Source of the DNA: an uncultured archaeon
Lineage (GTDB): Archaea > Hadarchaeota > Hadarchaeia > Hadarchaeales > WYZ-LMO6
Assembly: GCA_938074535.1 (NCBI GenBank)
Contig: CALJER010000008.1
Location: 44,954 to 108,953, forward strand
Direction of reading: 5' to 3'
DNA: 64,000 nucleotides
This document shows, in pieces, positions 1,323 through 48,409 of the stretch (positions within the stretch are counted from its first letter, which is position 1; the number at the start of each line of letters is the position of its first letter). The position numbers were made by a program, and so were the translations under genes. Under the pieces are notes generated by a model. It was not told where the DNA came from. It was given only the letters and a program-made list of their open reading frames with translations, and ran no database searches.

Positions 1323-1359
1323 CCCAAGCCTTTTTTTCCTCCAGAAAACCACTCTTTTG

Positions 1360-12646: not shown

Positions 12647-12650
12647 ACCA

Positions 12651-13079: not shown

Positions 13080-13100
13080 CTCATCCCCTCCGGCGCCCCC

Positions 13101-13525
13101 TCATTTTATTATTATGTTGTGGATTCCACAGTTCCTCTGGGCGAGCCTCTTCGCCCTCTTAATCCTTGCACCGCCCTTCCCTATCGCAAGTCCCTTGTCC
13201 TGCTGCCTCACCTCAAGCACCGCCACCTTCTTCCCGTCCTCCTCCGCGAAGACCAGGGAACCTATCTGGGCGGGGGCAAAGAGCAGTCTGAGGAACTCCT
13301 CCGGATCCTCCGAGTACCCCACCACCTCCACCTCCTTCCCGAGCATCTTCTTGAGCTTCTTTACGTGGCACCCGTTCTTACCCACGCAGAGTCCCACCAG
13401 CTCCTTCTGCACCAGAAACACCAGTCTGTTCTCCCCCTCGCTGAGGATGCAATCCCTGGCCTTCACCCCGCTTACCATCTCCAGGAGGGAAATATATCTC
13501 ATCTCTTCCTCGCTGAGGACGATGT

Positions 13526-13529
<4 letters not shown>
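13101..13529 (-). CDS. nusA: Archaeal NusA (KH-domain)
   Basis: GKNG and AIGKGG KH motifs, conserved position after L30e. Confidence 0.93.
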
Positions 13530-17608
<4,079 letters not shown>

Positions 17609-31475: not shown

Positions 31476-33008
<1,533 letters not shown>

Positions 33009-33070: not shown

Positions 33071-33577
33071 TCAGCGGAGGGGCTCCACACCCTCCAAATC
33101 GCTCAATTCCCCCCTAGTCTCCTTCGCCCAGACCGCCCTCACCCTCATCCCGATGTGCACTTCTTTCGGATCCGCACCTATCAACAGAGTGCCCAAGTTG
33201 GAATCGGCGCCGTCGAATTTGACGAAAACGGGAATAATAACCTCATCCTCCTGGATGAGGCCCTGCTCCACGGGATCCATCCCCAGCACCTTGATCTTCC
33301 CCCTTTTGATGGGCGGGCTTATGATGAAGCAGGTGACGGTACCTACGTCGGAAACCACCACCCTACCCTCCATCTTCCTGTGGCACCTCCCGCACAGGTT
33401 CCTGGGAGGCACTATCACCTTCCCGCATCCGAAGCACAGAGAGCCCACCAGCTTCCTCTGTTTTAAACCCTCCACGAATTCTTCGAGGAGTCTGTTGGCC
33501 TTCCAGGTGTAGGCCCCTATGTTCCACTCCCCCTCCACGCCCAGGGTTTCCGGTCTTTCCTCTTTGAGGTATGGCAT
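33071..33577 (-). CDS. DUF35 Zn-ribbon/OB-fold protein (ChsH2 C-terminal-like)
   Basis: CFGC...PPRNLCGRC, GTV, IGMRVRAVW. Confidence 0.9.
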   Translation of the reverse strand: MPYLKEERPETLGVEGEWNIGAYTWKANRLLEEFVEGLKQRKLVGSLCFGCGKVIVPPRNLCGRCHRKMEGRVVVSDVGTVTCFIISPPIKRGKIKVLGMDPVEQGLIQEDEVIIPVFVKFDGADSNLGTLLIGADPKEVHIGMRVRAVWAKETRGELSDLEGVEPLR

Positions 33578-33581
33578 CCCC

Positions 33582-34823
33582 TCACCTCGGAGAGTCACCC
33601 AGCACCGTCACCGTGGTGTAGTTCGTCACTCCCCCCCATCCGTGGGCCACGGCGTTCCTGACCTCCTTCGGGACCTGGTGCTCCTCGGCCTTTCCCATCA
33701 CCTGCAGAGCGGCTTCCAGGATCCTCTGTAAGGCGGAAGACCCTATGGCGTTCGTGGCGAGAACCCCCCCGGAGGGATCCGTCGGCATTCTGCCGTCGAT
33801 CTCCATTTCCCCCTCCTCGAGGGCCACCCAGGCCTTTCCCTCGTCAAAAAGCCCCAGCCTCTCGGCGAAGATGAGCTCCTGACTTGGGAAGGGCTGGTAA
33901 ATCTCAGCCACATCTATCTCCCTCTTCGGATCCGTTATTCCCGCCATCCTGTAGGCCTTCATCGCGGAAACCCTGCACCCCATCTGCTCGGAGGCGTCAA
34001 GGATGCCCACTCCCCCGTAGCTCTCGCTCATGAGCTGGTTTTCCTCGTCGGAGTAGGACGCAAGCCCCTTAACCCAGGCTTTGTCCTCTTTCTTCTTTGC
34101 GATATCCTCGGCCGCCACCACAATGGCAGAAGCGCCATCACTCGCGGGGCAGATGTGTCCGAACCTGAAGGGATACGCCACCATCTCGGTCTTTGCTATG
34201 TCCTCCGGGGTGCACCCTGGCCACTGAAGGTGTGCGTACTTGTTCTTCGCGGCGTTTCTCCTGCTCTTTGCAGCCACCATGTCGAAGTGCTCGATTCTAC
34301 ACCCGGATCTGTGCATGTAGAACATCGCCTGGTAGACGGCGACCCCCGCAGCGGCCCCCACGACGGTGGTGGCCACCAGACTCTTGAGGTTCATCCCGTA
34401 GTTGAAGGCATGGAAGAAATTGGCAAGAGCCACGTGCAGGAGACCGGTGGTTGCCCCGGGCTCTTTGCTGTCGGAATGCTTCTCCCAGGCCACGGCCAGG
34501 ACTTTGTCGTACATCCCCGAGGCCACCGCATAGATGGCCCCCTGCCCCACCGATCCCCCTGTGGTTCCACCCGTGGCTATTCTCATAACGGGCTTTCCCG
34601 GGGCGCCTATCCAATCCCCAATCCACTGGTCTGGCTGGGCGACGCCGCCGAACCCCTGCATGTTCCCCACCACGATGGCGTCAATCTCCTCTGGGGTTAC
34701 CTGGGCATCCTCCATGGCCCTCCAGGCTGCCTCTTCAATCATTTCAGGCAGGCTGACATCCCTTCTCTTGCTCGAATGCTTGGTCTGTCCGCATCCTATT
34801 ATGGCGACATTCCTGAACATCAT
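33582..34823 (-). CDS. Thiolase-fold (SCP-x/Ltp3-like) protein lacking catalytic Cys and His
   Basis: VAIIGCGQT, ATGGTTGGS at the Cys site, CPASDGA, DVAEIY, PSGGVLATNAIGSS at the His site. Confidence 0.88.
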   Translation of the reverse strand: MMFRNVAIIGCGQTKHSSKRRDVSLPEMIEEAAWRAMEDAQVTPEEIDAIVVGNMQGFGGVAQPDQWIGDWIGAPGKPVMRIATGGTTGGSVGQGAIYAVASGMYDKVLAVAWEKHSDSKEPGATTGLLHVALANFFHAFNYGMNLKSLVATTVVGAAAGVAVYQAMFYMHRSGCRIEHFDMVAAKSRRNAAKNKYAHLQWPGCTPEDIAKTEMVAYPFRFGHICPASDGASAIVVAAEDIAKKKEDKAWVKGLASYSDEENQLMSESYGGVGILDASEQMGCRVSAMKAYRMAGITDPKREIDVAEIYQPFPSQELIFAERLGLFDEGKAWVALEEGEMEIDGRMPTDPSGGVLATNAIGSSALQRILEAALQVMGKAEEHQVPKEVRNAVAHGWGGVTNYTTVTVLGDSPR

Positions 34824-35965
34824 CCCTCACCCCCAAGAATGAAAACCCAGTTCTTCTGGGCACACATCCCGAACTGGCCGTGAGCCAGGGCCCTTCGCAC
34901 ACCCGGAATCTGGTACTCACCCGCCTCGCCCCTTATTTGCTTGGCGGCCTCCACCATCCTCACCAGGCCCGTCGCGCAAACCGGATCGGCCGCGAGAGCC
35001 CCACCGCTGGGGTTAACGGGGATTTCACCGCCCTTCTCCGTTGCCCCCCTCTCCAAGAGGACCTTGCCCTTGCCCCTCCTGCAGAGGCCCAGGGCCTCGT
35101 ATATCATCAGCTCCTCGTGGGCAAATTTTTCCGAAACTTCGAAGACGTCAAGCTCCGCGTAGGGATCCCTTATCCCCGCCATCTCATAGGCATCCTTTGC
35201 CGCCTTACGCAGGGAATCAAGCTCGAGGAGGTTCCTGTCACGGAGGTAGAAGTCCTGGCAGACGCCTACCCCCTCTATCCAGACGGGAGTGTCGGTGATC
35301 TCCTTTGCCTTTTCTTCCGAGGCCAGAACCAGGGCACAGGCGCCGTCGCTGATGGGGGACATCATCAACTCCCTTATGGGATGGTAATAAAGTTTGGAGC
35401 CGAGCACCTCCTCCACAGTCAGGTCCGGCATCCTCCTCTGGGCAAAGGGGTTCTTCGCGGCATTCGAGAGATTCTTGACGGAAACCATCGCGATTTCCTC
35501 TTCGGAGACTCCGTAGGAGGACATGTACATCCTAGCTTGGATAGCAGCGGCTGAAACATCGTTGAGAACTCCTATCTGCCTGTCAAAGAGGGGATCCAAA
35601 GTGTAGAAGGATACTTGGTGTGGGTTGAAGGTCGACCCCTGAGTGTGGGCCTCCACCAGAGCTACGTCATGTACACCGGAGAGAATCCTCATGAAAGCGT
35701 ACCAAGCCGCGGAGGTACCATCTTCCTCTGTTTTCGATTCGTCCTTCAGGTAGGCCCCCACCGCCATGCTGAGAAAAACGCTTGAAATGGTCCTGCCGTC
35801 CAGAAAGTCCGTGGAGGCCGTGACCACGGTATCCACCTCCCCGCGCGTGATTCCCGCGTGCGAGAGGGCCTCTTTGACAACCTCAAAAACCATGTCCTCC
35901 CTGGTCTTTTGCATATCGAACTGATGTTGGGTCTGAGCGTAGCCCACTATGGCGACTCTCCTCAA
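34820..35965 (-). CDS. Thiolase-fold (Ltp4-like) protein lacking catalytic Cys and His
   Basis: VAIVGYAQT, DFLDGRTIS, ESKTEEDG, PISDGA, NPSGGALAADP, ALAHG..G.CAQKN. Confidence 0.88.
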   Translation of the reverse strand: MRRVAIVGYAQTQHQFDMQKTREDMVFEVVKEALSHAGITRGEVDTVVTASTDFLDGRTISSVFLSMAVGAYLKDESKTEEDGTSAAWYAFMRILSGVHDVALVEAHTQGSTFNPHQVSFYTLDPLFDRQIGVLNDVSAAAIQARMYMSSYGVSEEEIAMVSVKNLSNAAKNPFAQRRMPDLTVEEVLGSKLYYHPIRELMMSPISDGACALVLASEEKAKEITDTPVWIEGVGVCQDFYLRDRNLLELDSLRKAAKDAYEMAGIRDPYAELDVFEVSEKFAHEELMIYEALGLCRRGKGKVLLERGATEKGGEIPVNPSGGALAADPVCATGLVRMVEAAKQIRGEAGEYQIPGVRRALAHGQFGMCAQKNWVFILGGEG

Positions 35966-35969
35966 AGGC

Positions 35970-36446
35970 TCACCTCGAGGGTTTGAAGTATTCTATGTCC
36001 GCCAGCTCGCCTCTGGTTGCCTCTCTCCATTTCGGCTCCACTTCCATTCCCTCCCTCACCCCCTCGGGGTCTATCTCTCCAATCGGCATGAAGATCGTGG
36101 AATCGGCTCCTTCCAGCTTTATGGCCCCTATCACCCTTGGTTTTTCCAGGTCCACAAAATTCCCCTCCCCATCCAGCCCAACATAGGCCGTGGTGTAACC
36201 GACCAGAACCCCCCTTCCGGAAAGCTCTACCAAGTTTTTCTCCCCAAGCTTGGTCAAGCATTTTCCACACCTCGACCTGGGCGGCACGTAGGTGTACCCA
36301 CAGCTGGGGCACTTCGCCCCCAGAAGTTTCTTTTCGGCGAGTGACTTTATGAATCTCTCCATCAGAAAGCCCGTGGACCACTTGAACCGTGCAACGAAAG
36401 GCAGACCCTTTACTCGAACTATCCCTTCCCTCTCCAAATGCAACAA
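35970..36446 (-). CDS. DUF35 Zn-ribbon/OB-fold protein
   Basis: CPSC...PPRSRCGKC, GMEVEPKW, DIEYFKP. Confidence 0.9.
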   Translation of the reverse strand: MLHLEREGIVRVKGLPFVARFKWSTGFLMERFIKSLAEKKLLGAKCPSCGYTYVPPRSRCGKCLTKLGEKNLVELSGRGVLVGYTTAYVGLDGEGNFVDLEKPRVIGAIKLEGADSTIFMPIGEIDPEGVREGMEVEPKWREATRGELADIEYFKPSR

Positions 36447-36534
36447 AAAAAGTCGCCTAACCCCTTTAATAAGCCTTTCGGAAGCCGGCGGTCCAAGAGC
36501 TATTTAAGCCCCAACACGGAGAGCTGTTTGGGGA

Positions 36535-38544
36535 ATGGTCTCAGATTCTTTCTCCAGGTACAGACAAAAGTACTCAGACGGCAACAGAAGAAACAACACT
36601 TGGGGCGCCAGACTTGAGATGCTCGCCCACGTGATCCCGGACAGGAGCGCCTTCATCCAAGGAGAGAGGGAAGTGACTTGGGGGCACTTCAACGAGCGAG
36701 TTAACATGTTGGCAAACGCGTTTTTGGACCTCGGGATAAAAAAGGAAGAGAGGGTGGCCATAGTGGGCTTCAACTGCATTGAGTGGATGGAAACTTACTT
36801 CGCCGCTTCCAAGATAGGGGCCGTGCCGGTTAATGTGAACCCCAGGTTCGTTCCGGAGGAGGTCAGGTACATCCTCGAGAACTCGGACTCGGCGGCGGTG
36901 GTTCTGGAAGGCGAATTCCTCGAAACCGTAGAAAAGGCCTGCCGGGGTCTCTCCTCGGTGAGGCACTGCATCGTTTGGGAAGGGAGTCCCCCAGAGGGGA
37001 TGCTGAGCTATGAAGAACTTCTAAAAAACCGCCCCCCCACCGAACCCGAGCTTGGGTGGGAGGTGACCAACGAAGATTTCTGCTTTCTCTTTTACACGGG
37101 AGGAACGACCGGATATCCTAAGGGAACCGTGTGGGATTATGAAAGCAGGGTGAGGGGCTTGGATATGCTGCTTTATCACGCCATGACGCCCCTTCTGGAA
37201 AATCTGGCCAAGATGCCGGAAGGTTCATACGTTGGAACCATAAACACCCTTATCCCGCCCGAAGCAGCTGAATTCTTGCTGCCCACTTTTCAAACACCTC
37301 CCGAGTTCGAACCATGGCTGGAGCTAATCAAAACTCTGTACCCTCCCGGGTTTGAGCCCGAGGCTGAAAAGCTCACGCGATCCCTCGTGGAACTTCTCCG
37401 GTCAGTACCGGAGCCGGTAAGGGAAAAAATGATGCGGCTGATGAACACGCCGGCAGAAGAACGCGGCACCACGCAGGAAATCTTCCGCGATCCAGCCGTC
37501 GTACACTTTTTGAAGGAAACCTTCAGAGTGCTTCTCGGCACACCGCTCGCTTACCTGCTCAACGGCTCGAGGGTAAGAATTCTGATTGCCGCACCTTTGT
37601 TCCACGGTGCAGCCTATGAAGCCAATTTTGCGTACATCGGCACTTCCGGTGCCACAAGCGTTTACCTCACCTCCCATCGCTTTAACCCGAGAGAACTTTG
37701 GGAAACTGCGGAGAGGAGAAAAGTTAATTATATCCTCATAGTGGGGGACGCCTTTGCCATTCCCATGGCCGAGGAGCTGGAAAGAAGGAGATACGATCTC
37801 GGCTCGCTAGCGGGCATCATCTCATCCGGAGTCACCTGGTCCCCCAAAATCAAGAAAAAGCTGCTCGCACACATGCCCAGAGGCCTGGCGCTGGACGAAC
37901 TGGGGACTACGGAGTTCAGCGGTGCCCACTCCCACATCTCCACTCCTGCGGATGAAGAGATACCTGACCTCAGAATAAAAATCTCTTCGAACGGGGCCTA
38001 TCCCTGCCGGGTCGTCGATCCGGAAACGTGCGCAGACACCAAGCCTGGAGAGAGGGGGGAACTCATTTACGGAGGCTATATGGCCCTGGGATACTGGAAG
38101 GATCCGGAAAGAACCGCCAAATATTTCAGGTGGATAGACGGCAGACGCTGGTTCTTCACCGGGGATGAAGGAATTGTCGATGAGGACGGATACTTTCATT
38201 TCATAGGGAGGGGTGCTCTCGTGATCAACACCGGCGGAGAAAAAGTCTATCCTGAAGAAGTTGAAGAAACCATCAAAACACATCCCAAGGTCAGGGATGC
38301 TATTGTGACGGGGGTTCCGGATGAAAAGTGGGGTGAGGCTGTCACGGCCCTCGTGGAGCTGAAGGTTGGAGAAGAGGCAAAAGCGGAAGAAATAGTGGAG
38401 TTCTGCAGGGGAAGGCTGGCGGGATACAAAAAACCAAGGCATGTGATCTTCGTGGAGAAAATTCCCAGATCCGCCAGCGGAAAAATAGAGAGGGGGGAGA
38501 TAAAGAAAATGGCGGAAAAAATACTTAAATCTGGGAAGTCCTAA
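36535..38544 (+). CDS. Acyl-CoA synthetase (FadD19-like) with a large internal insertion
   Basis: YTGGTTGYPKG, PLFHG, GYWKDPE, FTGD, INTGGEKVYPEEVE, AGYKKPR, SGK. Confidence 0.92.
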   Translation: MVSDSFSRYRQKYSDGNRRNNTWGARLEMLAHVIPDRSAFIQGEREVTWGHFNERVNMLANAFLDLGIKKEERVAIVGFNCIEWMETYFAASKIGAVPVNVNPRFVPEEVRYILENSDSAAVVLEGEFLETVEKACRGLSSVRHCIVWEGSPPEGMLSYEELLKNRPPTEPELGWEVTNEDFCFLFYTGGTTGYPKGTVWDYESRVRGLDMLLYHAMTPLLENLAKMPEGSYVGTINTLIPPEAAEFLLPTFQTPPEFEPWLELIKTLYPPGFEPEAEKLTRSLVELLRSVPEPVREKMMRLMNTPAEERGTTQEIFRDPAVVHFLKETFRVLLGTPLAYLLNGSRVRILIAAPLFHGAAYEANFAYIGTSGATSVYLTSHRFNPRELWETAERRKVNYILIVGDAFAIPMAEELERRRYDLGSLAGIISSGVTWSPKIKKKLLAHMPRGLALDELGTTEFSGAHSHISTPADEEIPDLRIKISSNGAYPCRVVDPETCADTKPGERGELIYGGYMALGYWKDPERTAKYFRWIDGRRWFFTGDEGIVDEDGYFHFIGRGALVINTGGEKVYPEEVEETIKTHPKVRDAIVTGVPDEKWGEAVTALVELKVGEEAKAEEIVEFCRGRLAGYKKPRHVIFVEKIPRSASGKIERGEIKKMAEKILKSGKS

Positions 38545-38551
38545 ATACTGC

Positions 38552-39775
38552 GTGAACTTTGAACTCACGGAAGAGCAATCGATATTCAGAAAAACCCTTC
38601 GGGAGTTTCTGGACAAAGAAATTTCCCCCATCGCGGACAAAAGGGACAGAAAGGGGCCCCTCACAAAGGAAGAGGTAATAGGATTTTACAAAAAGTTCAA
38701 GGAGATAGGACTGGGCTTCGACCCGGCGACGGCGAGAGTTTGGCTGAAGGACCCAATGTTCTTTGGGATTGCCGCGGAAGAGATAAGTCGCGTCTGGGCC
38801 AGCCTGTTCGCGGTTTGGGCGTACCAGATCTTTGCCTCCCTTGCTCCCCTAGCTTCTGAGGAAAGCGCGGAAAGGTTGGCTTCTAAACTGGAGAGGGCAG
38901 AGCTCGTCGGCTGCATGGCCGTGACCGAGCCAGGAGCCGGCTCCGACACCTCCAAACTCCAGACCACTGCGACCCTGGAAGGAGATCATTATGTCATCCA
39001 GGGAAGAAAGTGCTGGATAACCAACGCTCCCATAGCCGACGTGGCTCTGGTCGCGGCAACCGAAAAGGATACTGGAATGCAGAACTTTTTCTTCATCGAT
39101 CGGGAAGTTTCCCCCTTCGAAACGACCGAATTACATAAAATAGGTTGGAGAGCCGCGCCCACGGGCGAGATGTTTTTTGATAACTGCCGGGTACCCAAGG
39201 AGAACGCTTTAACGGAGATGCTCTCCAAAGCCTTCACGGAGAGGGAGGAGATGAGGCCCCCCCTCTTCGACCCAGAATCCGGGATAATGAAGTTGGCCAC
39301 GAAAATTAAACCCCTGAGCGCCATCTTTTGCTTCATGCGGACGGGGATGGCGCTGCAGGCGACAGGGATTTCGCAGGCGGCTCTGGACGCCTCGATGAAA
39401 TACGCAAAGGAGAGAACTCAGTTCGGCAAACCTATCGGGAAGTTCCAGCTCGTTCAGGAGCTACTTTATGAAATGACCGCCATAACGGAGTCCTCACGCC
39501 TTCTCGCATACCGGGCTTTGGATGTAGCGTGGAGGGGAGACCCCGAGGCGAGAAAGTGGTCTTCTTTGGCCAAATGTTACGCCTGTGAGGGCTGCATCAA
39601 AGTGACTTACAATGCGATACAGCTCCACGGCGGGATAGGTCTCTCGGAGGAACTTCCGCTGGAGAGATACTTCCGGGATGCCAGGATAATGACCATCGGT
39701 GACGGCACCACCGAAATTCAAAAAATGATCGTGGGGCGCGAACTCCTGGGCAAGGGATTCTCGGCCTACGCCTAG
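38552..39775 (+). CDS. Acyl-CoA dehydrogenase
   Basis: TEPGAGSD, KCWITN, RTQFGKPIGKFQLVQ, QLHGG.G, IGDGTTEIQ. Confidence 0.93.
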   Translation: MNFELTEEQSIFRKTLREFLDKEISPIADKRDRKGPLTKEEVIGFYKKFKEIGLGFDPATARVWLKDPMFFGIAAEEISRVWASLFAVWAYQIFASLAPLASEESAERLASKLERAELVGCMAVTEPGAGSDTSKLQTTATLEGDHYVIQGRKCWITNAPIADVALVAATEKDTGMQNFFFIDREVSPFETTELHKIGWRAAPTGEMFFDNCRVPKENALTEMLSKAFTEREEMRPPLFDPESGIMKLATKIKPLSAIFCFMRTGMALQATGISQAALDASMKYAKERTQFGKPIGKFQLVQELLYEMTAITESSRLLAYRALDVAWRGDPEARKWSSLAKCYACEGCIKVTYNAIQLHGGIGLSEELPLERYFRDARIMTIGDGTTEIQKMIVGRELLGKGFSAYA

Positions 39776-39788
39776 AAGCATCACCCGT

Positions 39789-40709
39789 TCATTTGCTGGA
39801 CGGTCGGGGCAGGCTGAAAAAGAAAGTCCCTTCCCTTTTCACCACCTTTACCCTTCTTTCATTCTGCAGTTTAACGAGGTGGGCCAGGACAGAATTGTAT
39901 GTAAAATACGGAAATCCCCCCTCCGGATAGACCGAGTTGACGAGCTCCGAAAGGTCTTTCTCACCCTCCCCCAGAATTTCCAGCAACTTTTGTTCCGTCC
40001 TGAATTTTTGCTGAAGGATCCCGTCTATTCTCTTGTGGACCTCCCCCACCTCCCCACCATGTGAAAGAAAGGCCTTGTCTATCCTCAGCTTTTTTAGACG
40101 CTGGAGCGATTCCAAGAATTCCTCCAGGCTGCCCTGTAGGCACCCTACGAAGGGCGTCCCCCTGACCGTGATCATGTCCCCGGCGAATATGGTGCGGCTC
40201 TCCCCTTCGTAAAGACAAATGTGCCCCGGTGCATGACCGGGCGTGTGAAGAACTTTTAGGGAGAGGTCAGCCGCTCCAATGGAGTCTCCTTCCCTCAATC
40301 TCATGTCGACCTTTGCCGTCTTCACTTTCTCGTAAATGGAAGCTCGCATTCTGGCATGATCCGCGATTATGCCAGGCATCTCGCTCAGCACTTCCTCTGG
40401 TGGGAGCTGTTTTTTCATGTCCTCTATCAAAGGCGCGGCTACTTCATGCGCCGCTATCTTAACCCCGGCTCTCTCCTTTATGGAGGCGTTCCCACCGAAA
40501 TGGTCGATATGCTCATGGGTGTTCACGATCATGGAGACGTCGCTCAAATCGAACCCTATTTCCTCCAATTGAGAGGAGAGTTCTCCCACCGATTCCTCAT
40601 ATCCGCTGTCTATCAAAACCGGCGTTTCGCTCTCTACTAAGAAGGCATTTACCCTCTGCAGACCCGGGAAGCTTGGCTCGAGCGATATCGTGTGTACGCG
40701 CAGCCCCAT
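39789..40709 (-). CDS. Metallo-beta-lactamase-fold hydrolase with C-terminal wHTH-like region
   Basis: THEHIDHFG, TPGHAPGH, AGD, SHG. Confidence 0.9.
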   Translation of the reverse strand: MGLRVHTISLEPSFPGLQRVNAFLVESETPVLIDSGYEESVGELSSQLEEIGFDLSDVSMIVNTHEHIDHFGGNASIKERAGVKIAAHEVAAPLIEDMKKQLPPEEVLSEMPGIIADHARMRASIYEKVKTAKVDMRLREGDSIGAADLSLKVLHTPGHAPGHICLYEGESRTIFAGDMITVRGTPFVGCLQGSLEEFLESLQRLKKLRIDKAFLSHGGEVGEVHKRIDGILQQKFRTEQKLLEILGEGEKDLSELVNSVYPEGGFPYFTYNSVLAHLVKLQNERRVKVVKREGTFFFSLPRPSSK

Positions 40710-40801
40710 CTCGGACTCACCACTTTTCTTCTCACCGCTACTTAAATTTGCGGACAGGATCGGGAAGAAAAGCTTTTTATACTGCGGGGCCCGGGAAAAA
40801 T

Positions 40802-41878
40802 GTGATAAAAACCAGACTTTGTGACCTCCTGGAAATAAAACACCCCATCATCCAAGGGGGCATGGGGCCCTTCCAAACGAACAAGCTAGCAGTTGCGGTT
40901 GCAAACGCCGGAGCGCTCGGGGTTATAAGCACCAGCGGAATCGTGCTCAAGAGCATGGGCGTGGATCTAGGCCCCCTTGCACCCGAAGGGGGTGACCCCT
41001 ACGAGGTGTTGAGAAGAATCATCCACCAAACCGTGGAAGCCACGGAAGAGCACGGAAAAATCGGAATAAACGTGATGGTCTCGGCCGAAATGATGGACGC
41101 TGCGAGGGAGCTCGTACGGGCCGCCGTCGACGCCAGGGGCGAGAACCCCTCGGTCCAAAAAAAGCTGAAGGCGATAATCACCTCGGCGGGTGACCCTCTG
41201 CCCTGGACCGACGTGATAAAGCCCTCCGGCCTCACATGGCTGCACGTAGTTCCCTCGGTTCGCGCGGCCAAAAGGTGTGAAAAGGCGGGAGTAGACGTGA
41301 TAATAGCCTCGGGACAAGAGGGAGGGGGACACACCGCTTGGGAGCCGGTTCACTCGATGGTTTTGATCCCAGCTGTCGTCGAGGCCGTCAAAACTCCAGT
41401 GGTAGGGGCGGGAGGATTCGCGGACGGGGCTTCCCTGGTAGCGGCTTTGGCCCTGGGGGCTGTGGGAGTCCAGATGGGTACAAGATTCGTAGCGACCAAG
41501 GAAGCCGACTTCGTGCAGATGTGGAAGGAAAGAATAGTGAAAAGTGGGGAAAGAGACACGATCATCGCAAGGGGTTTTGTGGGACCCTTGAGGTATCTGA
41601 AGAATAAGGCCTCCGTCGAACTCGCTGAACAGACGCTGGAAAAAATTCCCAACCTGTTTTTGGGGCGTCCGGACGTCTCCCTGGATCCCGAAATCCTCAG
41701 CAAAGAGCTTGAGGGAACCATGGCCCTCCTGGGGGATGATGATGAGAGGGCCCTGTTTTACGGCGGGGAGGTCGCGGGGAGGATATCCGACATACCCACC
41801 GCCAGGGAACTCATTGAGAGGATAGTGAGAGAAGCGGAAGAAATTTTGAGGGAAATGCCAAAAAAATTCCTGAGATAG
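40802..41878 (+). CDS. FMN-dependent nitronate monooxygenase / FabK-like enoyl reductase
   Basis: PIIQGGMG, GQEGGGH, AGGFADG, GVQMGTRF. GTG at 40802. Confidence 0.9.
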   Translation: MIKTRLCDLLEIKHPIIQGGMGPFQTNKLAVAVANAGALGVISTSGIVLKSMGVDLGPLAPEGGDPYEVLRRIIHQTVEATEEHGKIGINVMVSAEMMDAARELVRAAVDARGENPSVQKKLKAIITSAGDPLPWTDVIKPSGLTWLHVVPSVRAAKRCEKAGVDVIIASGQEGGGHTAWEPVHSMVLIPAVVEAVKTPVVGAGGFADGASLVAALALGAVGVQMGTRFVATKEADFVQMWKERIVKSGERDTIIARGFVGPLRYLKNKASVELAEQTLEKIPNLFLGRPDVSLDPEILSKELEGTMALLGDDDERALFYGGEVAGRISDIPTARELIERIVREAEEILREMPKKFLR

Positions 41879-41998
41879 ACGGGGCAGGATACTCGGCTAC
41901 CCACGTCTGGTCCATCCGGCTCGACGCCGATTCGAGAGCGGATGCTGGCAGGATGGTTCCGTAGAAATGCTTATACGCTTCCCCTGCAGGATTTTTTG

Positions 41999-42922
41999 AT
42001 GGAGAAACTGATCATCACCGCGGCAGTGACCGGGGGGGAGTTTGTTTCCAAGCTGCAAACCGAATATGTTCCCTGCACTGTGGACGAAATAGTTGAGGAA
42101 GTTATCAGGTGCAGGAAGGCGGGCGCCTCGGTGGTTCACCTGCATGCCAAAGATCCCGAAACCGGCAGACCCCATCCGGATCCCAATTCAGTTTTTCCGG
42201 AATACATCAGAAGAATAAGGGAAAGCGAGGCTTCGGACATCATAATCAATGTGACTACGGGTGGGGGAAGGCCCCTTCCTAGAGAGATGGCCGAGCTGTT
42301 CGGTATCGAGCAAAAGTACACCCCAGAGGAGTATGAGAGGATGGTGGACAAGTGGATGGAGGAGCGAATGAAGTTCGGTCAAGAGATGTCCTCGCTCAAC
42401 ATGGGATCGATAAACATCTGGGAGGACATGGGGCTGGAGCCCCTGAGGGACTTCGTGTTCAGCAACCCCATCTCCAGAATCGAGCGATGGGCAAAATACA
42501 TGTACGAGAACAACGTAAAACCAGAACTCGAGATTTACGACACGGGCATGATAAACACGGCCAAAGCCTTGGTGAGGGAGGGAAAACTGAAGGAGCCTTT
42601 ACATGTCCAGTTCGTCCTCGCCGGGGGGATGAGCTGTATGTCGCCAACGCCGAAAACTCTGTTGTACTGTGTTGAAAGCATTCCCCAGAACTGGACCTGG
42701 TCGGTTTGTGCGACCGGAAGATATGAGATGGAGATGGGAACACTGGCAGTTATCCTCGGCGGCCACGTGAGGGTCGGGATGGAGGACAACATATACCTGG
42801 AGAAAGGAGTCCTCGCAAAAAGCAACGCTGAACTCGTTGCCAAGATCGCTCGGATAGCCAAGGAACTTGGAAGAGAAACAGCCACTCCCGACGAGGCAAG
42901 GAAAATTCTGGGCTTGAGATAA
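41999..42922 (+). CDS. Beta-keto acid cleavage enzyme (BKACE / DUF849, Kce family)
   Basis: KLIITAAVTG, GASVVHLH, KPELEIYD, GHVRVGMEDN, ATPDEARKIL. Confidence 0.93.
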   Translation: MEKLIITAAVTGGEFVSKLQTEYVPCTVDEIVEEVIRCRKAGASVVHLHAKDPETGRPHPDPNSVFPEYIRRIRESEASDIIINVTTGGGRPLPREMAELFGIEQKYTPEEYERMVDKWMEERMKFGQEMSSLNMGSINIWEDMGLEPLRDFVFSNPISRIERWAKYMYENNVKPELEIYDTGMINTAKALVREGKLKEPLHVQFVLAGGMSCMSPTPKTLLYCVESIPQNWTWSVCATGRYEMEMGTLAVILGGHVRVGMEDNIYLEKGVLAKSNAELVAKIARIAKELGRETATPDEARKILGLR

Positions 42923-43015
42923 CTGCCCGGAAAGCAGGCGCGGATCCCGAAGGACCGTTCAGCGATGGCTCCCCAGCCCCGGGCGGTGCGGACCTGGAAA
43001 GAGGTTCAACCTGCT

Positions 43016-44194
43016 CTATGTCCTGTAACTCTTCGGCATGCCCAGAACATGCTCCGCGATGAAGTTCAGAGCCATCTGCTGGGTAACCGGGGCCAGGCGA
43101 AGCAGGTTGATCTCCCTCCACCACCTCTCCAGATCCATTTCCTTCGCGTATCCGTAACCCCCAAAAATCTGCATGGCCCAATAAACGGCCTTGATTCCCG
43201 CCTCAACGGCGACCGCCTTCGCCATATTTGCCGCGGCACCCACTTCCAACCTATGAGCCTCCCTGTCAAAAAGCCAAGAGGCCTTGAAATTCATCAGCCT
43301 CGCACACTCCAGGGTGGCGAAGGCCTCGGCGAGGGGGAACTGGAGTCCCTGATAGCTTCCGATCGGATCCTCAAACACCCTCCTCTGCTTTGAGTATTCC
43401 ACGGCCTTGTTGATCGCAAGCCTGGCCGTACCTATCGCCGCGGCGGTGAAGCTCATTCTCTCGGCGTTTAGGGTATCGAGCAGGATGTACCATCCACCGT
43501 GGAGGGGGGGAATCAGGGCATCCTCCGGGAGCCTGAGGTTGTCTATCTGTACCTCGCAGGTCTCCGAGTAGTTTATCCCATGCTTGGGTATCGGGCTTAT
43601 CCTCACCGCCTCGTTCGGAAGGTCTGCCAGGAAGAGACTTATTCCATGGGCCTTCTCCCTCTCCCTCGGCGCGGTTCTGGCCACTATGAGCATACCTCCC
43701 GCCCGGTCGGCGCCGCTGATGAAAATCTTGCTGCCGTTGATCACCCACTCTCCGCCCCCCTTGAGCGCCCTCGTCTTGGTGGCCAGGGTGTTGGTTCCCG
43801 CCTCAGGTTCGGTCAGAGCCATGCAAAACTCCATTTCACCCCTCGCCAGCCTCGGAAGATACTTCCTCTTCTGCCCCTCCGTCCCGTGCCTCACTATCGT
43901 CAGGGCCCCGAAGACCTCCGTGAGGATCAGGTACCACGCCCCGCCCATGCCGCAGCCATTCGCCGCCAGTTCTTCCATCACTATGAGGAGCTCCGTCATC
44001 CCCAGGCCCAGTCCGCCGTACTCCTCTGGGACCACTATTCCCATGAAGCCTCTCTCGCCTATCTCCCTCAGGAATTCCTCCCCCACTTCCCCCCTCTCCT
44101 CCTTCCTCCTCCAGTATTCGGGGGGGAAACGCCTGGCTACCTCCCTGGCGGCATCTGCGAGCATCTTCTGCTGCTCGGTAAGCTCGAAATTCAC
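43016..44194 (-). CDS. Acyl-CoA dehydrogenase
   Basis: PEEYGGLG, TEPEAG, NGSKIFIS, LNAER, QIFGGYGY, LLRLAPV. Confidence 0.93.
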   Translation of the reverse strand: MNFELTEQQKMLADAAREVARRFPPEYWRRKEERGEVGEEFLREIGERGFMGIVVPEEYGGLGLGMTELLIVMEELAANGCGMGGAWYLILTEVFGALTIVRHGTEGQKRKYLPRLARGEMEFCMALTEPEAGTNTLATKTRALKGGGEWVINGSKIFISGADRAGGMLIVARTAPREREKAHGISLFLADLPNEAVRISPIPKHGINYSETCEVQIDNLRLPEDALIPPLHGGWYILLDTLNAERMSFTAAAIGTARLAINKAVEYSKQRRVFEDPIGSYQGLQFPLAEAFATLECARLMNFKASWLFDREAHRLEVGAAANMAKAVAVEAGIKAVYWAMQIFGGYGYAKEMDLERWWREINLLRLAPVTQQMALNFIAEHVLGMPKSYRT

Positions 44195-44195
44195 C

Positions 44196-44933
44196 TCATT
44201 CCCCCGGGGCTTCCCACCTCTTCATCACCATCTCCCTCGTTATCCCGAATCTCTCCTGCAAGAACTCGTAGGTTTTTTCCAGGTCCCTTCTGAGATCCTC
44301 CATAGCCTTGGCATCGGCGTGAAGACAAGACCACTTGGGTGGCTCCTGCCCGGGGACGGGGACGGCGTAGATGTCCATGAGCTCCCCCTTCCTCTCCTCC
44401 CTGAACTTTATGCGGACCCTCTGCCCCACCCACACGTGGGTGGGGGAAGTCAGGATCTGGATGGGCAGAGCTGTGTGGGCACCATCGATCTGAACGTATC
44501 CCAGCACGAAGGGAAGATGCTCCAGAAAGGCCTCGGCCGAGAAGAGCATGATGGAGAAGGTGTGGACCTTCCCGCTGGGGGGAAGCTCGACCCACTCGGT
44601 CGGCTGCGCCTTGCAACTAGGGTTCCAGCAGTGGGCCCGGGCAGGACAGTAAACCGTCCCGCAGCGGGGGCATCTGGTGCCGTAAAGCTTCCCCTCTATC
44701 AATCCCCTGAAGAACTTTGAGACCTTGCCTAGGCTGTGGTGATAGAGGACACCGTGGGGGCGGTAAACGACCATGAACTCCTCCTCCCTTTCCTCCCCCA
44801 CCTTGGTGTTTCCTGCGGGACCCCTTATTATCCGGTATCCCCTGGGCCTCCAGTTCCCCCTTCTCGCGTACTCCTCCCACTCCCTCAGCACTTCCAAGAC
44901 CCTGTCCTCCACCACCTTTTCCCTTTCCCCCAC
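44196..44933 (-). CDS. DUF35 Zn-ribbon/OB-fold protein with N- and C-terminal extensions
   Basis: CPRC...CPARAHCWNPSC, GKVHTFS, VGQRV. Confidence 0.88.
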   Translation of the reverse strand: MGEREKVVEDRVLEVLREWEEYARRGNWRPRGYRIIRGPAGNTKVGEEREEEFMVVYRPHGVLYHHSLGKVSKFFRGLIEGKLYGTRCPRCGTVYCPARAHCWNPSCKAQPTEWVELPPSGKVHTFSIMLFSAEAFLEHLPFVLGYVQIDGAHTALPIQILTSPTHVWVGQRVRIKFREERKGELMDIYAVPVPGQEPPKWSCLHADAKAMEDLRRDLEKTYEFLQERFGITREMVMKRWEAPGE

Positions 44934-44937
44934 TCCC

Positions 44938-46218
44938 TCACCTCGAAAAGACGATAACTCCTCCCTGGCAGCCCGTGCCGCCGTGACCAGTGAGGAGGGC
45001 CTTCTCAGCTCCGGAAACCTGCAGCTTCGGATCCCCGAATTTTTCCGGTATTCTCTCCGCTAGCTCCCAGTAGAGGAAGAGGGTCTGGAGCAGGCTGGTG
45101 GCCCCCACCGGATGGGCAAAGGCCGTGAGGCCACCGCTGAGCTGGCAGGGCAGCTCCCCCCCTCTCATCACCGTTCCCTCCCTAACCATGGTTTTTCCCT
45201 CCCCTCTGGGACACCACAGAAGGTCCTCATACAAACAGAGCTCAACCCCGTCATAGGGCGCGAAGAGTTCGGCGAGGTCGAGTTCCCGCACGGGGTGGGT
45301 GATACCGGCCCTCCTGTACGCCTGCCTGGCGGCCTCCCTCGCAAAACCGAAATTGGCCATCTCCGGGTAGGGCGTCAAAGGCCTCTCCACGAAGCTGGGG
45401 TACCTCTCCTCGTCCTCCGGGTATGCACCCTTGTAGGGCCAGTCCACCAGCCTGTCCCCCGGCCTCATGGAATCCGTTCCGAGTCCTACCCCTTCTATCC
45501 ACATCGGCGCATCCGAATACTTCCTGGCCACCTTTTCCGAAGCCAGGAGGAGGACCGCGGCCCCCTCGCTTATCAGGGCACAGTTCCATCTCCGGTAAGG
45601 CCAGGCGACGATCCTGTCCTTGAAGTAATCATCCAGCGTCACATAGCTCGTACCGTGCTCGGATCTCCACTGAGAGTACGGATTGTGGACGGCGTTGTTC
45701 CTGTTCCTGACCGCCAACCTTCCCAGATCTTCCACGGTTTCGCCGTAGAGCTGCATGTGCCTCACCTCGAGCGCTGCATAATACCCGTTGTAGTACCCGC
45801 CCACGGTGAAATCCCAGTCGGTGTCCGAAGCCGCGGCGATGAACTCGTTGGTGGTAGCGGTGTCCACCTCGGACATCCACTCCCAACCTACTACCAGAAT
45901 GAGGTCGTACTCTCCGGATTTTATCAGGAAATACGCATTTATCAGGGCATCGAGGGGAGTGCTCCCCCCCGCCTCCACCCTGTACCCGGGCTTCCTGTGA
46001 TGCCCTATATAGTCCTGGACTATCCAGCTCATGCAGAGCTGCTGATTCAGGTGGTCGCTGAAGTAGGAACACTGAACGAATTCTATGTCCCTGGGATCCA
46101 GCTCTGGAACCTCCTCGAGCAACATCCTGTAGGCCTCCGCCACGCCCTCTTCAGCGACCTCGTAGCGAACCCTATCGGGCCTGAAGAGGCCCCCTCCCAC
46201 CACCGCCACCTTGGTCAT
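44938..46218 (-). CDS. Thiolase-fold (SCP-x type) protein lacking the N-terminal catalytic Cys
   Basis: VEAGGST at the Cys site, NAVHNPY, ISEGAA, SGGL..AHPVGAT (His retained). Confidence 0.88.
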   Translation of the reverse strand: MTKVAVVGGGLFRPDRVRYEVAEEGVAEAYRMLLEEVPELDPRDIEFVQCSYFSDHLNQQLCMSWIVQDYIGHHRKPGYRVEAGGSTPLDALINAYFLIKSGEYDLILVVGWEWMSEVDTATTNEFIAAASDTDWDFTVGGYYNGYYAALEVRHMQLYGETVEDLGRLAVRNRNNAVHNPYSQWRSEHGTSYVTLDDYFKDRIVAWPYRRWNCALISEGAAVLLLASEKVARKYSDAPMWIEGVGLGTDSMRPGDRLVDWPYKGAYPEDEERYPSFVERPLTPYPEMANFGFAREAARQAYRRAGITHPVRELDLAELFAPYDGVELCLYEDLLWCPRGEGKTMVREGTVMRGGELPCQLSGGLTAFAHPVGATSLLQTLFLYWELAERIPEKFGDPKLQVSGAEKALLTGHGGTGCQGGVIVFSR

Positions 46219-46444
46219 CTCGCCCTTTTTCCTTCGGAGTGTATTAAGCTTTTTGACTCATGCATTAAAACTGGACTTAAAACACCTTGAAGGTGAAATA
46301 AAAAGCAGAGGAACTAGCCCTGCATGAGCTAGCCGGATTTCGACCTCACGCCCTTGCCTCCACGCTTGGTCAAAGTGGTAGAGAACAAAGCATGGCGAAA
46401 CAGCTAATAAATACGAGAGCTCAACACCCAAATGGTGGAATACG

Positions 46445-48409
46445 GTGAGAAAGCCTCTTTGGACACCGTCGCAAGAACGCGTAGAAAGGGCTAACATAAC
46501 CTCCTTTATAGAATTTGTAGAAAGAAAACACGGTTTAAAAACAGCCTCCTACCATGAACTGTATAAATGGTCTATAGAAAACATCCCCAGTTTCTGGGAA
46601 TGTGTGTGGGAATTCGCTCAAATAAAAGCTTCCCACCGATATGAAGTGATAGTCGACGATCTAAGCAAGTTTCCGGGAGCAAGATGGTTTGTCGGGGCCC
46701 GCCTCAACTTTGCAGAAAACCTCCTGAAACACAGAGACGACCATCTTGCCTTCATATTCAGGAATGAGAGCCAAAAAACAAAAAGGCTAACCTACAGGCA
46801 GCTCTACGATTCGGTGGCCCGCTTGGCGAAACGGTTGCGCGAAATCGGAATTGGTCCAGGAGACCGCATAGCCGCTTACATGCCCAACATCCCCGAAACT
46901 CCAATTGCCATGCTTGCGGCGGCAAGTGTTGGCGCCATATGGTCTTCATGCGGAACGGAATTGGGTCCCAGCGCCGTCGTAGAGCGCCTGGGCCAAATAA
47001 ACCCCAAAGTACTGTTTGCTGTCGATGGCTATCCGTACAGGGGAAGAACCTTTGATGTTTTGACCAATATTGAAAAGATTGTGAAAGGAGTACCTTCCCT
47101 TGAAAAAGTTGTCGTGGTCCCGTACACAGCAGAAAAGCCCAACCTTGCGAATGTTCCCAAATCGATAAACTATGAGGAGTTTACATCCGCCGAAGAAAAA
47201 AGTGGGATCAAATTCGAACAGCTGCCGGCTGAACACCCACTCTACATAATGTTTTCCTCAGGGACTACCGGCAAGCCAAAATGCATGGTTCAGAGCGCCG
47301 CGGGAGTCCTCATCAACCACCTCAAAGAGCTAGTCCTCCACACGGACTTAAAACGTGAGGACAGGATTTTCTATATAACCTCTCCGAGCTGGATGATGTG
47401 GAACTGGCTGATGAGCTCCTTGGCCGTTGGCGCCACTATCATATTGTATGATGGCAACCCAAATTATCCGGACTGGGGCGCCATGTGGAAGCTTGTCCAG
47501 GAGGAGAAAATAACAATTTTCGGATGCAGCGCCAGCTACATAAACCATCTAAGGAGTGTGGGCGCCAAACCGGGAAAAGTTTATGACCTATCCTCCCTGC
47601 GTGAGATCTCCCAAACTGGGTCGCCACTCTCAGCTGAAGGCTTTGAGTACGCCTACAGAGAAATCAAGGAGGACCTGCACTTCAACTCCATTTCAGGAGG
47701 AACGGACATAAACGGCTGCTTCGCCGCCGGAACACCCATCCAACCAGTGTACGCTGGAGAACTGCAAGGTCCGGCGTTGGGGATGAAAGTTAAAGCTTAT
47801 GATGAAAAAGGCAACGAGGTGGTCGATCGCGAAGGAGAGCTTGTCTGCGAAGCCCCTGCACCGTCCATGCCGCTTTATTTCTGGAACGATCCAGACGGCA
47901 AAAAATACAAGGAAGCCTACTTTAGCTTCTACCCAAACGTTTGGCGGCACGGTGACTTGATTCTGATCCACAGCGACACGGGGGGAATAACCTTCCTCGG
48001 ACGCTCAGACTTTACGCTGAAACCCTCAGGCGTGCGCATAGGGCCGGCAGAAATCTACAGCGTGGTAGAAAAAATTGAGGGAATTGCCGACTGCATCGCT
48101 GTTGGACAGGACTGGAAAGGTGACCAACGCATAATTCTATTCGTAAAGCTTGCTCCACAGTTTAAGTTAACCGAGGAGTTGAAAAACAAGATTAAAAAGG
48201 TCCTAAGGGAGGAAGCTTCTCCAAGACACGTTCCGGCGTTGATCATCGAAGTGCCGGACATTCCATATACTTTCAACATGAAAAAAGTCGAAAGTGCAGT
48301 TTCAAACATAATAAACGGTAGGGCAGTTACGAATAGGGATGCCTTAATCAATCCGGAGTCGCTTGACTTCTTTGAAAAAATTCTCCCGGAGCTTCAAAAA
48401 GAACAGTGA
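46445..48409 (+). CDS. Acetoacetate-CoA ligase (acetoacetyl-CoA synthetase)
   Basis: LNFAENLL, FSSGTTGKPKC, WMMWNWL, SISGGTD, VWRHGD, GVRIG.AEIY, SPRHVP, KKVE. Confidence 0.94.
   Translation: MRKPLWTPSQERVERANITSFIEFVERKHGLKTASYHELYKWSIENIPSFWECVWEFAQIKASHRYEVIVDDLSKFPGARWFVGARLNFAENLLKHRDDHLAFIFRNESQKTKRLTYRQLYDSVARLAKRLREIGIGPGDRIAAYMPNIPETPIAMLAAASVGAIWSSCGTELGPSAVVERLGQINPKVLFAVDGYPYRGRTFDVLTNIEKIVKGVPSLEKVVVVPYTAEKPNLANVPKSINYEEFTSAEEKSGIKFEQLPAEHPLYIMFSSGTTGKPKCMVQSAAGVLINHLKELVLHTDLKREDRIFYITSPSWMMWNWLMSSLAVGATIILYDGNPNYPDWGAMWKLVQEEKITIFGCSASYINHLRSVGAKPGKVYDLSSLREISQTGSPLSAEGFEYAYREIKEDLHFNSISGGTDINGCFAAGTPIQPVYAGELQGPALGMKVKAYDEKGNEVVDREGELVCEAPAPSMPLYFWNDPDGKKYKEAYFSFYPNVWRHGDLILIHSDTGGITFLGRSDFTLKPSGVRIGPAEIYSVVEKIEGIADCIAVGQDWKGDQRIILFVKLAPQFKLTEELKNKIKKVLREEASPRHVPALIIEVPDIPYTFNMKKVESAVSNIINGRAVTNRDALINPESLDFFEKILPELQKEQ

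Follow-up and report, generated by a model that had tools for sequence, protein, structure and literature searches.

What might two thiolase-fold proteins do, when both have lost the catalytic cysteine of the thiolases and are encoded in one operon with two DUF35 proteins? The question is raised by a 64,000-nucleotide stretch of contig CALJER010000008.1 (hereafter, the window) from the genome of an uncultured member of the Hadarchaeota (G000; 1.2 Mb, 93.6% complete), whose archaeal nature is borne out in the window by a split RpoA, aEF-1alpha, geranylgeranylglyceryl phosphate synthase and a glycerol-1-phosphate dehydrogenase-like gene. The four genes, which we name DUF35a, ThlA, ThlB and DUF35b, prove to be homologous to the actinobacterial Ltp3/Ltp4-DUF35 set, and we propose, with a probability of roughly 60%, that they encode a heteromeric enzyme carrying out CoA-ester retro-aldol cleavage (or its reverse) within a pathway specified by the genomic island on which they lie.

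A preliminary description of this locus had noted an operon of the order DUF35, thiolase-fold, thiolase-fold, DUF35, divergent from an acyl-CoA ligase gene, and this arrangement was confirmed by the open reading frames and their Pfam matches. The four genes are tightly packed, with a gap of 4 nucleotides (nt) between DUF35a and ThlA, an overlap of 4 nt between ThlA and ThlB, and an overlap of 17 nt between the end of ThlB and DUF35b. The 88 nt (36447-36534) that separate the operon from the ligase gene contain two A+T-rich, TATA-like boxes, TTTAATAA (~36464-36472) and TATTTAAG (~36501-36508), each ~20-35 nt from the start codon that it faces, which may be promoters. ThlA and ThlB both have thiolase N- and C-domains (each matches Pfam Thiolase_C_1 at ~115 bits). 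DUF35a scores 41.7 bits on OB_ChsH2_C and 35.6 bits on zf-ChsH2, its translation showing C-x2-C-x10-C-x2-C; DUF35b scores 34.4 bits on zf-ChsH2 and 21.7 bits on OB_ChsH2_C, the latter under the cut-off of 27.1.

The active-site residues of ThlA and ThlB were compared, in alignments, with those of the three canonical thiolases of the same genome, of solved thiolases and of the actinobacterial relatives. The earlier claim that the nucleophilic Cys and the C-terminal His are gone from both proteins held, and all four motifs quoted in its support were found. In ThlB, Gly86 replaces the nucleophile (ATGGTTGGS), Asn358 replaces the His of the GHP motif (TNAIGSS), and the HDCF site of SCP2-type thiolases reads Y309-Q-P311-F. 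ThlA has a shortened acidic loop (KTEEDG) where the Cys loop would be, SEKF at the HDCF site, and Asp in place of the His (AADPVCAT). Neither protein thus has the nucleophilic Cys and activating His of Claisen-type thiolases (EC 2.3.1.9/16), which the genome's three other thiolases, encoded outside the window, retain. The ThlB residues are strongly conserved: every one of the 18 B-type proteins of the phylogeny described below, two Ltp3-type proteins included, has Gly86, Tyr309, Pro311, Asn358 and His198, and the fourth position of the Y-x-P-F motif varies there (F, A or C). Tyr309 aligns with the Tyr of the YDHF motif in the Ltp2-type protein of Nocardia; that Tyr is described as the catalytic base both in Ltp2 (YDHF) and in Sal (YDCY), and Sal is said to carry Gly at the thiolase Cys position, in the parts of PMC12329534 available to us. 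ThlA orthologues are conserved about as well as those of ThlB (mean pairwise distance 0.32 vs 0.28), and E80, D82 and G83 of the ThlA loop (E-x-D-G) are invariant in 28 rows.

Family models placed both proteins close to the Ltp3 and Ltp4 types. On NF006180, the Ltp3-type model, ThlB scores 471.9 bits (cut-off 514), the next model reaching 227. ThlA scores 205.7 bits over the full length of NF005924 (cut-off 419), a model on which five other, non-Ltp4 thiolase-fold proteins that we scanned score 53-95 bits, and its best model is NF006180 with 261.6 bits. NF006180 and NF005924 presumably stand for mycobacterial Ltp3 and Ltp4, as judged from the M. tuberculosis gene order; this assignment is anchored by the name of the TIGR03559 model matched in the Nocardia locus and by the gene labels in PMC10398937, both described below. 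In a phylogeny of 43 thiolase-fold proteins (IQ-TREE, LG+C20, rooted on three canonical paralogues), 36 rows formed one clade (support 100/99), which divided into a pair of sister clades, both with 18 rows and support of 98/97. In the B-type clade the two Ltp3-type proteins join the orthologues of ThlB and the second subunits from further two-thiolase modules; in the A-type clade the two Ltp4-type proteins join the orthologues of ThlA and the first subunits from these further modules; and the Ltp2-type protein, a third Cys-less protein of the island (Thl3) and the canonical thiolases fall outside both. Approximately unbiased tests, on groups that were named after the tree was seen, reject a single clade of Ltp3 and Ltp4 (p 0.014) and a single clade of the ThlA and ThlB orthologues (p 2e-52). 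This tree, with its A- and B-type sister clades, indicates that the A/B pair is the product of one old duplication and that each module retains one subunit of each type. The homology to the Ltp3/Ltp4-DUF35-FadD19-type set, as first put forward in the preliminary description, is therefore borne out by models, tree and tests alike; that description was right on ancestry and probably also on the type of chemistry.

Ltp3 and Ltp4 are regarded as a speciality of sterol-degrading actinobacteria and, to our knowledge, have apparently never been characterised biochemically. The archaeal set resembles theirs in having two adjacent, paralogous, Cys-less thiolase-fold genes, A-type then B-type, that belong to the same two sister clades, two DUF35 domains accompanying the pair, the B-type signature of Gly, Y-x-P-F and Asn, and a FadD19-type ligase gene nearby. 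In a Nocardia farcinica record (found by tblastn in a plasmid collection) a gene matching NF005924 (596 bits) adjoins one matching NF006180 (750 bits); a 340-amino-acid protein with two DUF35 OB domains precedes the pair, and a TIGR03559 'F420_Rv3520c' oxidoreductase gene adjoins it. The trio recurs on a Streptomyces clavuligerus plasmid, where an acyl-CoA synthetase gene diverges from it. The two sets differ in that the DUF35 domains are encoded by separate genes in the archaeon and by a fused gene in Nocardia and Streptomyces; in that ThlA retains segments lost by the Ltp4-type proteins and has SEKF where they have HAPF; and in sequence, with identities of 40-42% (ThlB/Ltp3) and 30-33% (ThlA/Ltp4). 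The hosts of the ThlA/ThlB module are anaerobic archaea and bacteria, and the genes lie outside any sterol catabolic cluster, with a beta-keto-acid cleavage enzyme (BKACE) and an acetoacetate-CoA ligase for neighbours instead of sterol genes and no carboxylase found in the genome. In a sterol-degradation cluster, two consecutively numbered genes, Mn_2766 and Mn_2767, are labelled ltp3 and ltp4 in the consulted part of PMC10398937, and the accessible portion of a review calls Ltp3-Ltp4 a heteromeric aldol-lyase (PMC6678751).

In a tree of DUF35 proteins the orthologues of DUF35a (99/97) and of DUF35b (100/99) form separate clades; the same tree does not resolve how these match the N- and C-terminal halves of the actinobacterial double DUF35. 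The zinc-ribbon cysteines are lost in both halves of the Nocardia double protein (L008:5914-6936), and in the Streptomyces one (L063:6916-7935) C-x2-C...C-x2-C is kept in the C-terminal half only. Among longer proteins we found four open reading frames (P0391-P0394, 737-746 amino acids) with an N-terminal half of the Ltp4 type, 49-63% identical to the Nocardia protein, and a C-terminal half of the Ltp3 type, 75-78% identical. These are either natural fusions or read-through calls of overlapping genes; as fusions they would support a physical association of the two subunits in the actinobacterial branch. The same search of longer proteins for A-B fusions gave none of the ThlA/ThlB branch, and three long representatives examined as candidates (P0309, P0251 and P0377) are not such fusions.

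Other thiolase-fold systems bound by DUF35 proteins offer closer or more distant parallels. Ltp2-ChsH2 and Sal-Shy (PDB 6OK1 and 9MYR), in which ChsH2 and Shy are the DUF35 proteins, share with the module an SCP2-thiolase fold bound by DUF35, the absence of a nucleophilic Cys (Sal having Gly, like ThlB) and a Tyr as the first residue of the HDCF-site motif. They differ in that each is a homodimer of a single thiolase-fold protein, that ThlB has no equivalent of their second catalytic residue (Tyr344 or Cys304), that the A/B clade excludes the Ltp2-type protein, and that the PDB sequences match with E-values of only ~1e-17; of their Y-D-[HC]-[FY] motif and second acid residue, ThlB keeps just the Tyr and Phe (YQPF). 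The archaeal thiolase/HMG-CoA synthase/DUF35 complex likewise pairs DUF35 with a thiolase fold of the SCP2 type, and one of its structures, 6ET9, is the best PDB match of ThlB in both structure and sequence; its thiolase, however, is a Cys-dependent Claisen enzyme. Our operon has neither an HMG-CoA synthase gene nor a Cys-bearing thiolase, and the genome's canonical trio (HMG-CoA synthase-like gene, thiolase with Cys, DUF35) is found on another contig, C3. The C-acyltransferases PhlABC and MucABC also combine two different thiolase-fold subunits with a DUF35 protein in one complex, according to the part of PMC6392133 that we consulted, but PhlC needs Cys88 and His347, its partner PhlA comes from another branch of the fold, and the sequence match is weak (E ~1e-19 for ThlB, ~1e-10 for ThlA). 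The benzoylsuccinyl-CoA thiolase BbsAB, another pairing of thiolase-fold and DUF35 subunits and also from anaerobes, differs in that BbsB is a true thiolase; on its model, NF053628, whose cut-off is 750 bits, our proteins score 106 and 126.

How might such a complex work? It should not be a thiolase, because the nucleophilic Cys is missing from both subunits. The Tyr of ThlB at the position of the Ltp2/Sal base, Asn358 and the lack of the Cys together make retro-aldol cleavage, or its reverse, the most likely reaction. We propose that A-type ThlA and B-type ThlB form a heteromer, in which a separate DUF35 zinc-ribbon/OB protein presumably caps each of the two, and that this complex would convert a 3-hydroxyacyl-CoA to a carbonyl compound and acetyl- or propionyl-CoA. 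ThlB is likely to be the catalytic subunit, and ThlA is probably auxiliary because it has no Cys, Tyr or His at the catalytic positions. By analogy with the solved aldolases, Tyr309 would act as the catalytic base, and Asn358, in the place of the thiolase oxyanion-hole His, would form part of the oxyanion hole of ThlB. The island contributes a ligase for activation, two acyl-CoA dehydrogenases, BKACE and an acetoacetate-CoA ligase, and the route as a whole would degrade a substituted acid to acetyl-CoA and acetoacetate.

Several observations weigh against this proposal. ThlB and ThlA both score under the curated NCBIfam cut-offs, and we found no assayed enzyme of the Ltp3/Ltp4 clade, the aldol-lyase label coming, in the text of the reviews available to us, from a cited genetic study. 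ThlB lacks the second of the catalytic residues seen in the solved aldolases: Pro occupies the position of the Ltp2 His and the Sal Cys, and Asn that of Tyr344 in Ltp2, so that the Ltp2/Sal mechanism is not simply transferable. An AlphaFold2 model of ThlB (predicted local distance difference test score 83.3) has the SCP2-thiolase fold, with low-confidence, family-specific insertions at residues 120-156 and 266-275; DUF35-binding thiolases come first in a Foldseek search with this model, Ltp2 ranking 20 and Sal 47. As predicted structure, the fold does not separate aldolase from thiolase, because true thiolases outrank Ltp2 and Sal and SCP2-type thiolase folds score alike. About two-thirds of the loci at which the module was found (see below) have none of the proposed partner genes nearby, in several the module sits amid unrelated genes, and the island has no hydratase gene, MaoC and crotonase genes lying elsewhere in the genome. 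Finally, Cys225 of ThlB is invariant in the B-type clade (18/18 rows), as might be expected if the complex were a genuine thiolase using another cysteine as nucleophile. We consider this very improbable: Cys225 is not a replacement nucleophile, since two of the three canonical thiolases carry it besides the true nucleophile, and the nucleophile-activating His is gone as well.

Three further explanations concern what a Cys-less complex might do. It could run in the bond-forming direction, adding acetyl- or propionyl-CoA to a ketone, an aldehyde or acetoacetate to give a branched 3-hydroxyacyl-CoA for assimilation or biosynthesis. Aldol reactions are reversible, and DUF35 complexes can pull unfavourable condensations, as in thiolase/HMG-CoA synthase and, in the consulted part of the report, the KT/DUF35 complex of S. 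acidocaldarius (bioRxiv 10.1101/2024.07.05.601840); furthermore, the acetoacetate-CoA ligase and BKACE of the island both handle acetoacetate. The neighbours, however, are catabolic in type (an AMP-forming ligase and two acyl-CoA dehydrogenases here, CoA-transferases at bacterial loci), and no set of reductase/dehydratase genes of the kind known from the archaeal fatty acid synthase adjoins the module, so we think net synthesis unlikely. We hold as similarly improbable some other enolate chemistry without a covalent intermediate, such as an isomerisation or the decarboxylation of a malonyl-type or beta-keto-acyl-CoA. A heterodimer of catalytic and non-catalytic thiolase-fold subunits would fit that pattern, and the Cys-less chain-length factor of type II polyketide synthases decarboxylates malonyl-type substrates. 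A Cys-less thiolase-like protein of T. brucei slowly decarboxylates malonyl-CoA, yet in the same text, as far as it was available to us, that protein is argued to be actually an aldolase (PMC12329534); the Tyr conserved at the aldolase-base position and the lack of any substrate-making carboxylase found in the genome, at its 93.6% completeness, also speak against such chemistry.

Rather less probable is that enzymatic function has been lost and that the proteins form a non-catalytic scaffold or carrier for acyl-CoA or lipid. All of the classical thiolase catalytic residues are missing in both subunits, and related families are described as 'lipid-transfer protein' by NCBIfam; set against this are the very high conservation across domains (64-82% identity for ThlB, 59-79% for ThlA), the invariant polar active-site residues Tyr309, Asn358 and His198, and the genetic requirement for ltp3 and ltp4 in a specific catabolic step, as told in the consulted parts of reviews citing Wilbrink 2012.

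The conservation of the module shows it to be a unit in its own right. Among the best 150 representatives matching ThlB in a library of 1.84 billion proteins, 115 are full-length; 94 of these have no Cys at the nucleophile position, 30 have the Gly/Tyr/Asn combination and 18 are canonical. When genome contigs were scanned for ThlB, 45 loci were recovered, with identities of 61-82% for ThlB and 59-79% for ThlA; the nearest named homologue of ThlB, at 94% identity, is from a Candidatus Hadarchaeales. The preliminary description had taken the module for an archaeal feature. Instead it is a laterally spread unit, with 36 bacterial loci (22 from Chloroflexota/Dehalococcoidia, five from delta- or other proteobacteria and nine unclassified) and nine archaeal ones (Methanolliviera, Thermoproteota, Hadarchaeota, Freyarchaeota, Archaeoglobi and unclassified archaea). 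The four-gene set is complete at 36 of the 45 loci and interrupted by contig ends at the other nine. Gene order follows the domain: DUF35a-ThlA-ThlB-DUF35b in 6/6 complete archaeal loci, ThlA-ThlB-DUF35b-DUF35a in 30/30 complete bacterial loci. Pairwise distances of the A and B subunits are correlated (r = 0.88; 0/2000 permutations as high). In a quick tree of the concatenated subunits, all 31 bacterial rows, the window, its metagenome twin (L077) and Methanolliviera form one clade, with the other archaeal lineages at an unresolved base, and no donor is inferred. We found no description of the module in archaea or anaerobes in the literature searched.

Four loci also have a paralogous DUF35/A-type/B-type/DUF35 module beside the main one or close to it (L013:4440-7644, L026:231-3486, L027:5-2279 and L049:8460-11102). 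In three of these four the A-type subunit has Y-D-A-F, and because the Tyr is present there, both subunits of those modules may be catalytic.

In the archaeon the module sits on a laterally acquired island (Table 1), of which the composition and the distribution both stand out. Its GC content is 55.4% against 63.3% for the genome, and GC at third codon positions is 0.55-0.79 in its genes against 0.85-0.89 in the flanking ones. An orthologue of ThlB is present in only three of 66 Hadarchaeota genomes, G000 included; there is none in four genomes of the same genus (88-95% complete), nor in one other genome of the same family. The distance between purH and guaB is 15.76 kb in the window and 1.8 kb in two same-genus genomes (G064 and G063), and in relatives without the island this gap holds two CoA-transferase-like genes (G064, L075:5987-7758). 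As both of these are missing from the window, the comparison indicates that the island replaced them and is not a simple insertion. There are no direct repeats at the island ends, and no integrase gene was seen within it.

Table 1. The island and its genes, with positions counted from the first letter of the window.
Feature	Position	Strand	Description	Basis
Island (laterally acquired, to judge by composition and distribution)	33071-48409		15.3 kb, 13 genes, between purH (31476-33008) and guaB (48768-50225)	
DUF35b	33071-33598	-	175 aa, second zinc-ribbon + OB-fold partner	Pfam
ThlB	33582-34823	-	413 aa, B-type (Ltp3-clade) thiolase-fold subunit	NF006180, tree, alignment
ThlA	34820-35965	-	381 aa, A-type (Ltp4-clade) thiolase-fold subunit	Pfam, NCBIfam, tree, alignment
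DUF35a	35970-36446	-	158 aa, zinc-ribbon + OB-fold partner; first gene of the operon	Pfam
Acyl-CoA ligase	36535-38544	+	669 aa, FadD19-type by best family	Pfam AMP-binding + AMP-binding_C
Acyl-CoA dehydrogenase 1	38552-39775	+		All four Pfam Acyl-CoA_dh domains; no NCBIfam model at cut-off
Metallo-beta-lactamase-fold hydrolase	39789-40709	-		Pfam Lactamase_B, 118.9 bits
NMO/FabK-like flavin mononucleotide (FMN) oxidoreductase	40673-41878	+		Pfam NMO, 168.8 bits
Putative BKACE	41942-42922	+		Pfam BKACE, 302.9 bits
Acyl-CoA dehydrogenase 2	43016-44194	-		Pfam; NCBIfam scores all below cut-offs
DUF35c	44196-44933	-	245 aa, DUF35 partner of Thl3	
Thl3	44938-46218	-	Third Cys-less thiolase-fold protein, Gly at Cys position, His kept	
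Acetoacetate--CoA ligase	46445-48409	+		NF002937, 897.8 bits (cut-off 639); TIGR01217, 838.4 bits (cut-off 520.9)

The divergent ligase had been claimed as a FadD19-type part of the module, and this claim stands in part. Its best model, NF005863, is matched with 468 bits in two stretches, below the cut-off of 543, and the next model (331) lies 137 bits lower, so that the FadD19 type is its best family by score. The match is split by an insertion of ~140 amino acids (residues ~207-345) in the AMP-binding domain. Homologues of 600-677 amino acids from Hadarchaeales, Deltaproteobacteria and Solincola appear to have the insertion too, and FadD19-like homologues of ~540 amino acids, named 3-oxocholest-4-en-26-oate--CoA ligase by JGI, are without it. 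The only match to NF005863 over the cut-off in the Nocardia record lies ~6.6 kb from the ltp3/ltp4-type locus. The linkage is the part that did not hold more widely: the ligase gene stands beside the module again in just two related metagenome contigs (L077 and L078), and the other 17 loci at which the ligase was found have no module.

One of these contigs preserves much of the island. Within 10.7 kb, L077 carries a metallo-beta-lactamase-fold gene (64% identity) and, next to it, BKACE (91%), the ligase (74%), the four module genes (74-89%) and the acetoacetate-CoA ligase (74%), in an order different from that of the window; L078 repeats part of the grouping, and an acetoacetate-CoA ligase copy of 74% identity flanks the module in both. 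Over all 45 loci, the genes found no more than 5 kb from the module include BKACE (15 loci), acyl-CoA dehydrogenases (12), AMP ligases (six), CoA-transferases (five), and MaoC, thioesterase and cyclase genes (four each). The content of the island suggests a common theme, in which a substrate would be activated and dehydrogenated, a C-C bond cut, and a beta-keto acid and acetoacetate processed. The BKACE of the island scores 275.7 bits on the Kce model (cut-off 382), and 3-hydroxyacyl-CoA dehydrogenase genes are present elsewhere in the genome.

Sterol, hopanoid or isoprenoid chains had been suggested as the substrates. This suggestion finds no support here, as there are no sterol genes near the module, no PF01039 carboxyltransferase was found in the genome (93.6% complete), and BKACE and acetoacetate-CoA ligase genes recur as neighbours. 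The sterol-type scheme of carboxylation, hydration and cleavage needs a carboxylation step, as set out in the accessible part of PMC6678751, and we set it aside as unsupported in G000 because that carboxyltransferase was not found. A route of the HMG-CoA lyase type or one by way of leucine would fit the acetoacetate theme and has no direct support; one HMGL-like gene is encoded elsewhere in the genome.

At four Chloroflexota loci (L020, L022, L023 and L024, ~12300-14350) the module is followed by BKACE and a cyclase-family (PF04199) gene. A double-hotdog thioesterase gene precedes the module in L020, L022 and L023, the fourth thioesterase of that cluster being in L044. The pairing of BKACE with a cyclase-family gene recalls the anaerobic phloroglucinol pathway. 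We dropped that pathway as an explanation, as no reductase or dehydrogenase belonging to it was seen near the four Chloroflexota loci and there is no cyclase gene in the window.

The remaining island genes have scattered counterparts. Loci L022 and L030 have metallo-beta-lactamase-fold genes close to the module. NMO genes adjoin it in L027 (43% identity) and lie near it in L022; the start of the NMO/FabK-like gene in the window is uncertain, the family match beginning at residue 47. Thl3 has F-A-P-Y at the HDCF site; an acyl-CoA dehydrogenase gene adjoins Thl3/DUF35c, and copies of the two at 77-79% identity are found in Dehalococcoidia (L026 and L044). At 126-2658 (+) of the window, 31 kb from the module, a gene resembling saccharopine dehydrogenase adjoins one resembling the RuBisCO large subunit; both families are also represented at three loci of Dehalococcoidia (L010, L011 and L047, ~1-2350), where they lie ~7-8 kb upstream of the module.

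The Ltp3/Ltp4 kind of protein was already known; what is new is a highly conserved branch of this little-studied kind that crosses domains and circulates among strictly anaerobic subsurface bacteria and archaea without a sterol pathway. Automatic labels of 'acetyl-CoA acetyltransferase' are misleading for such proteins, because 94 of the 115 full-length ThlB representatives lack the thiolase Cys. The four-protein set offers a compact and probably thermostable target for studying the Ltp3/Ltp4 class of enzymes. More speculatively, and we put this forward as a tentative idea only, the module may be a domain-crossing, four-subunit C-C lyase that, together with BKACE and acetoacetate activation, lets strict anaerobes cleave blocked 3-hydroxyacyl-CoAs without oxygen or biotin. 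If this were true, its hosts would include Dehalococcoidia, Hadarchaeota, relatives of Methanoliparia, Archaeoglobi and Asgard archaea; the substrates would be 3,3-disubstituted or otherwise blocked, with branched acids, isoprenoid-derived ones among them, as a possible source, and cleavage would yield acetyl-CoA and acetoacetate. Ltp3/Ltp4, the sterol enzyme, would then represent a single specialised branch of a far larger family, and the module points to an unexplored step in the anaerobic degradation of substituted acids in sediments.

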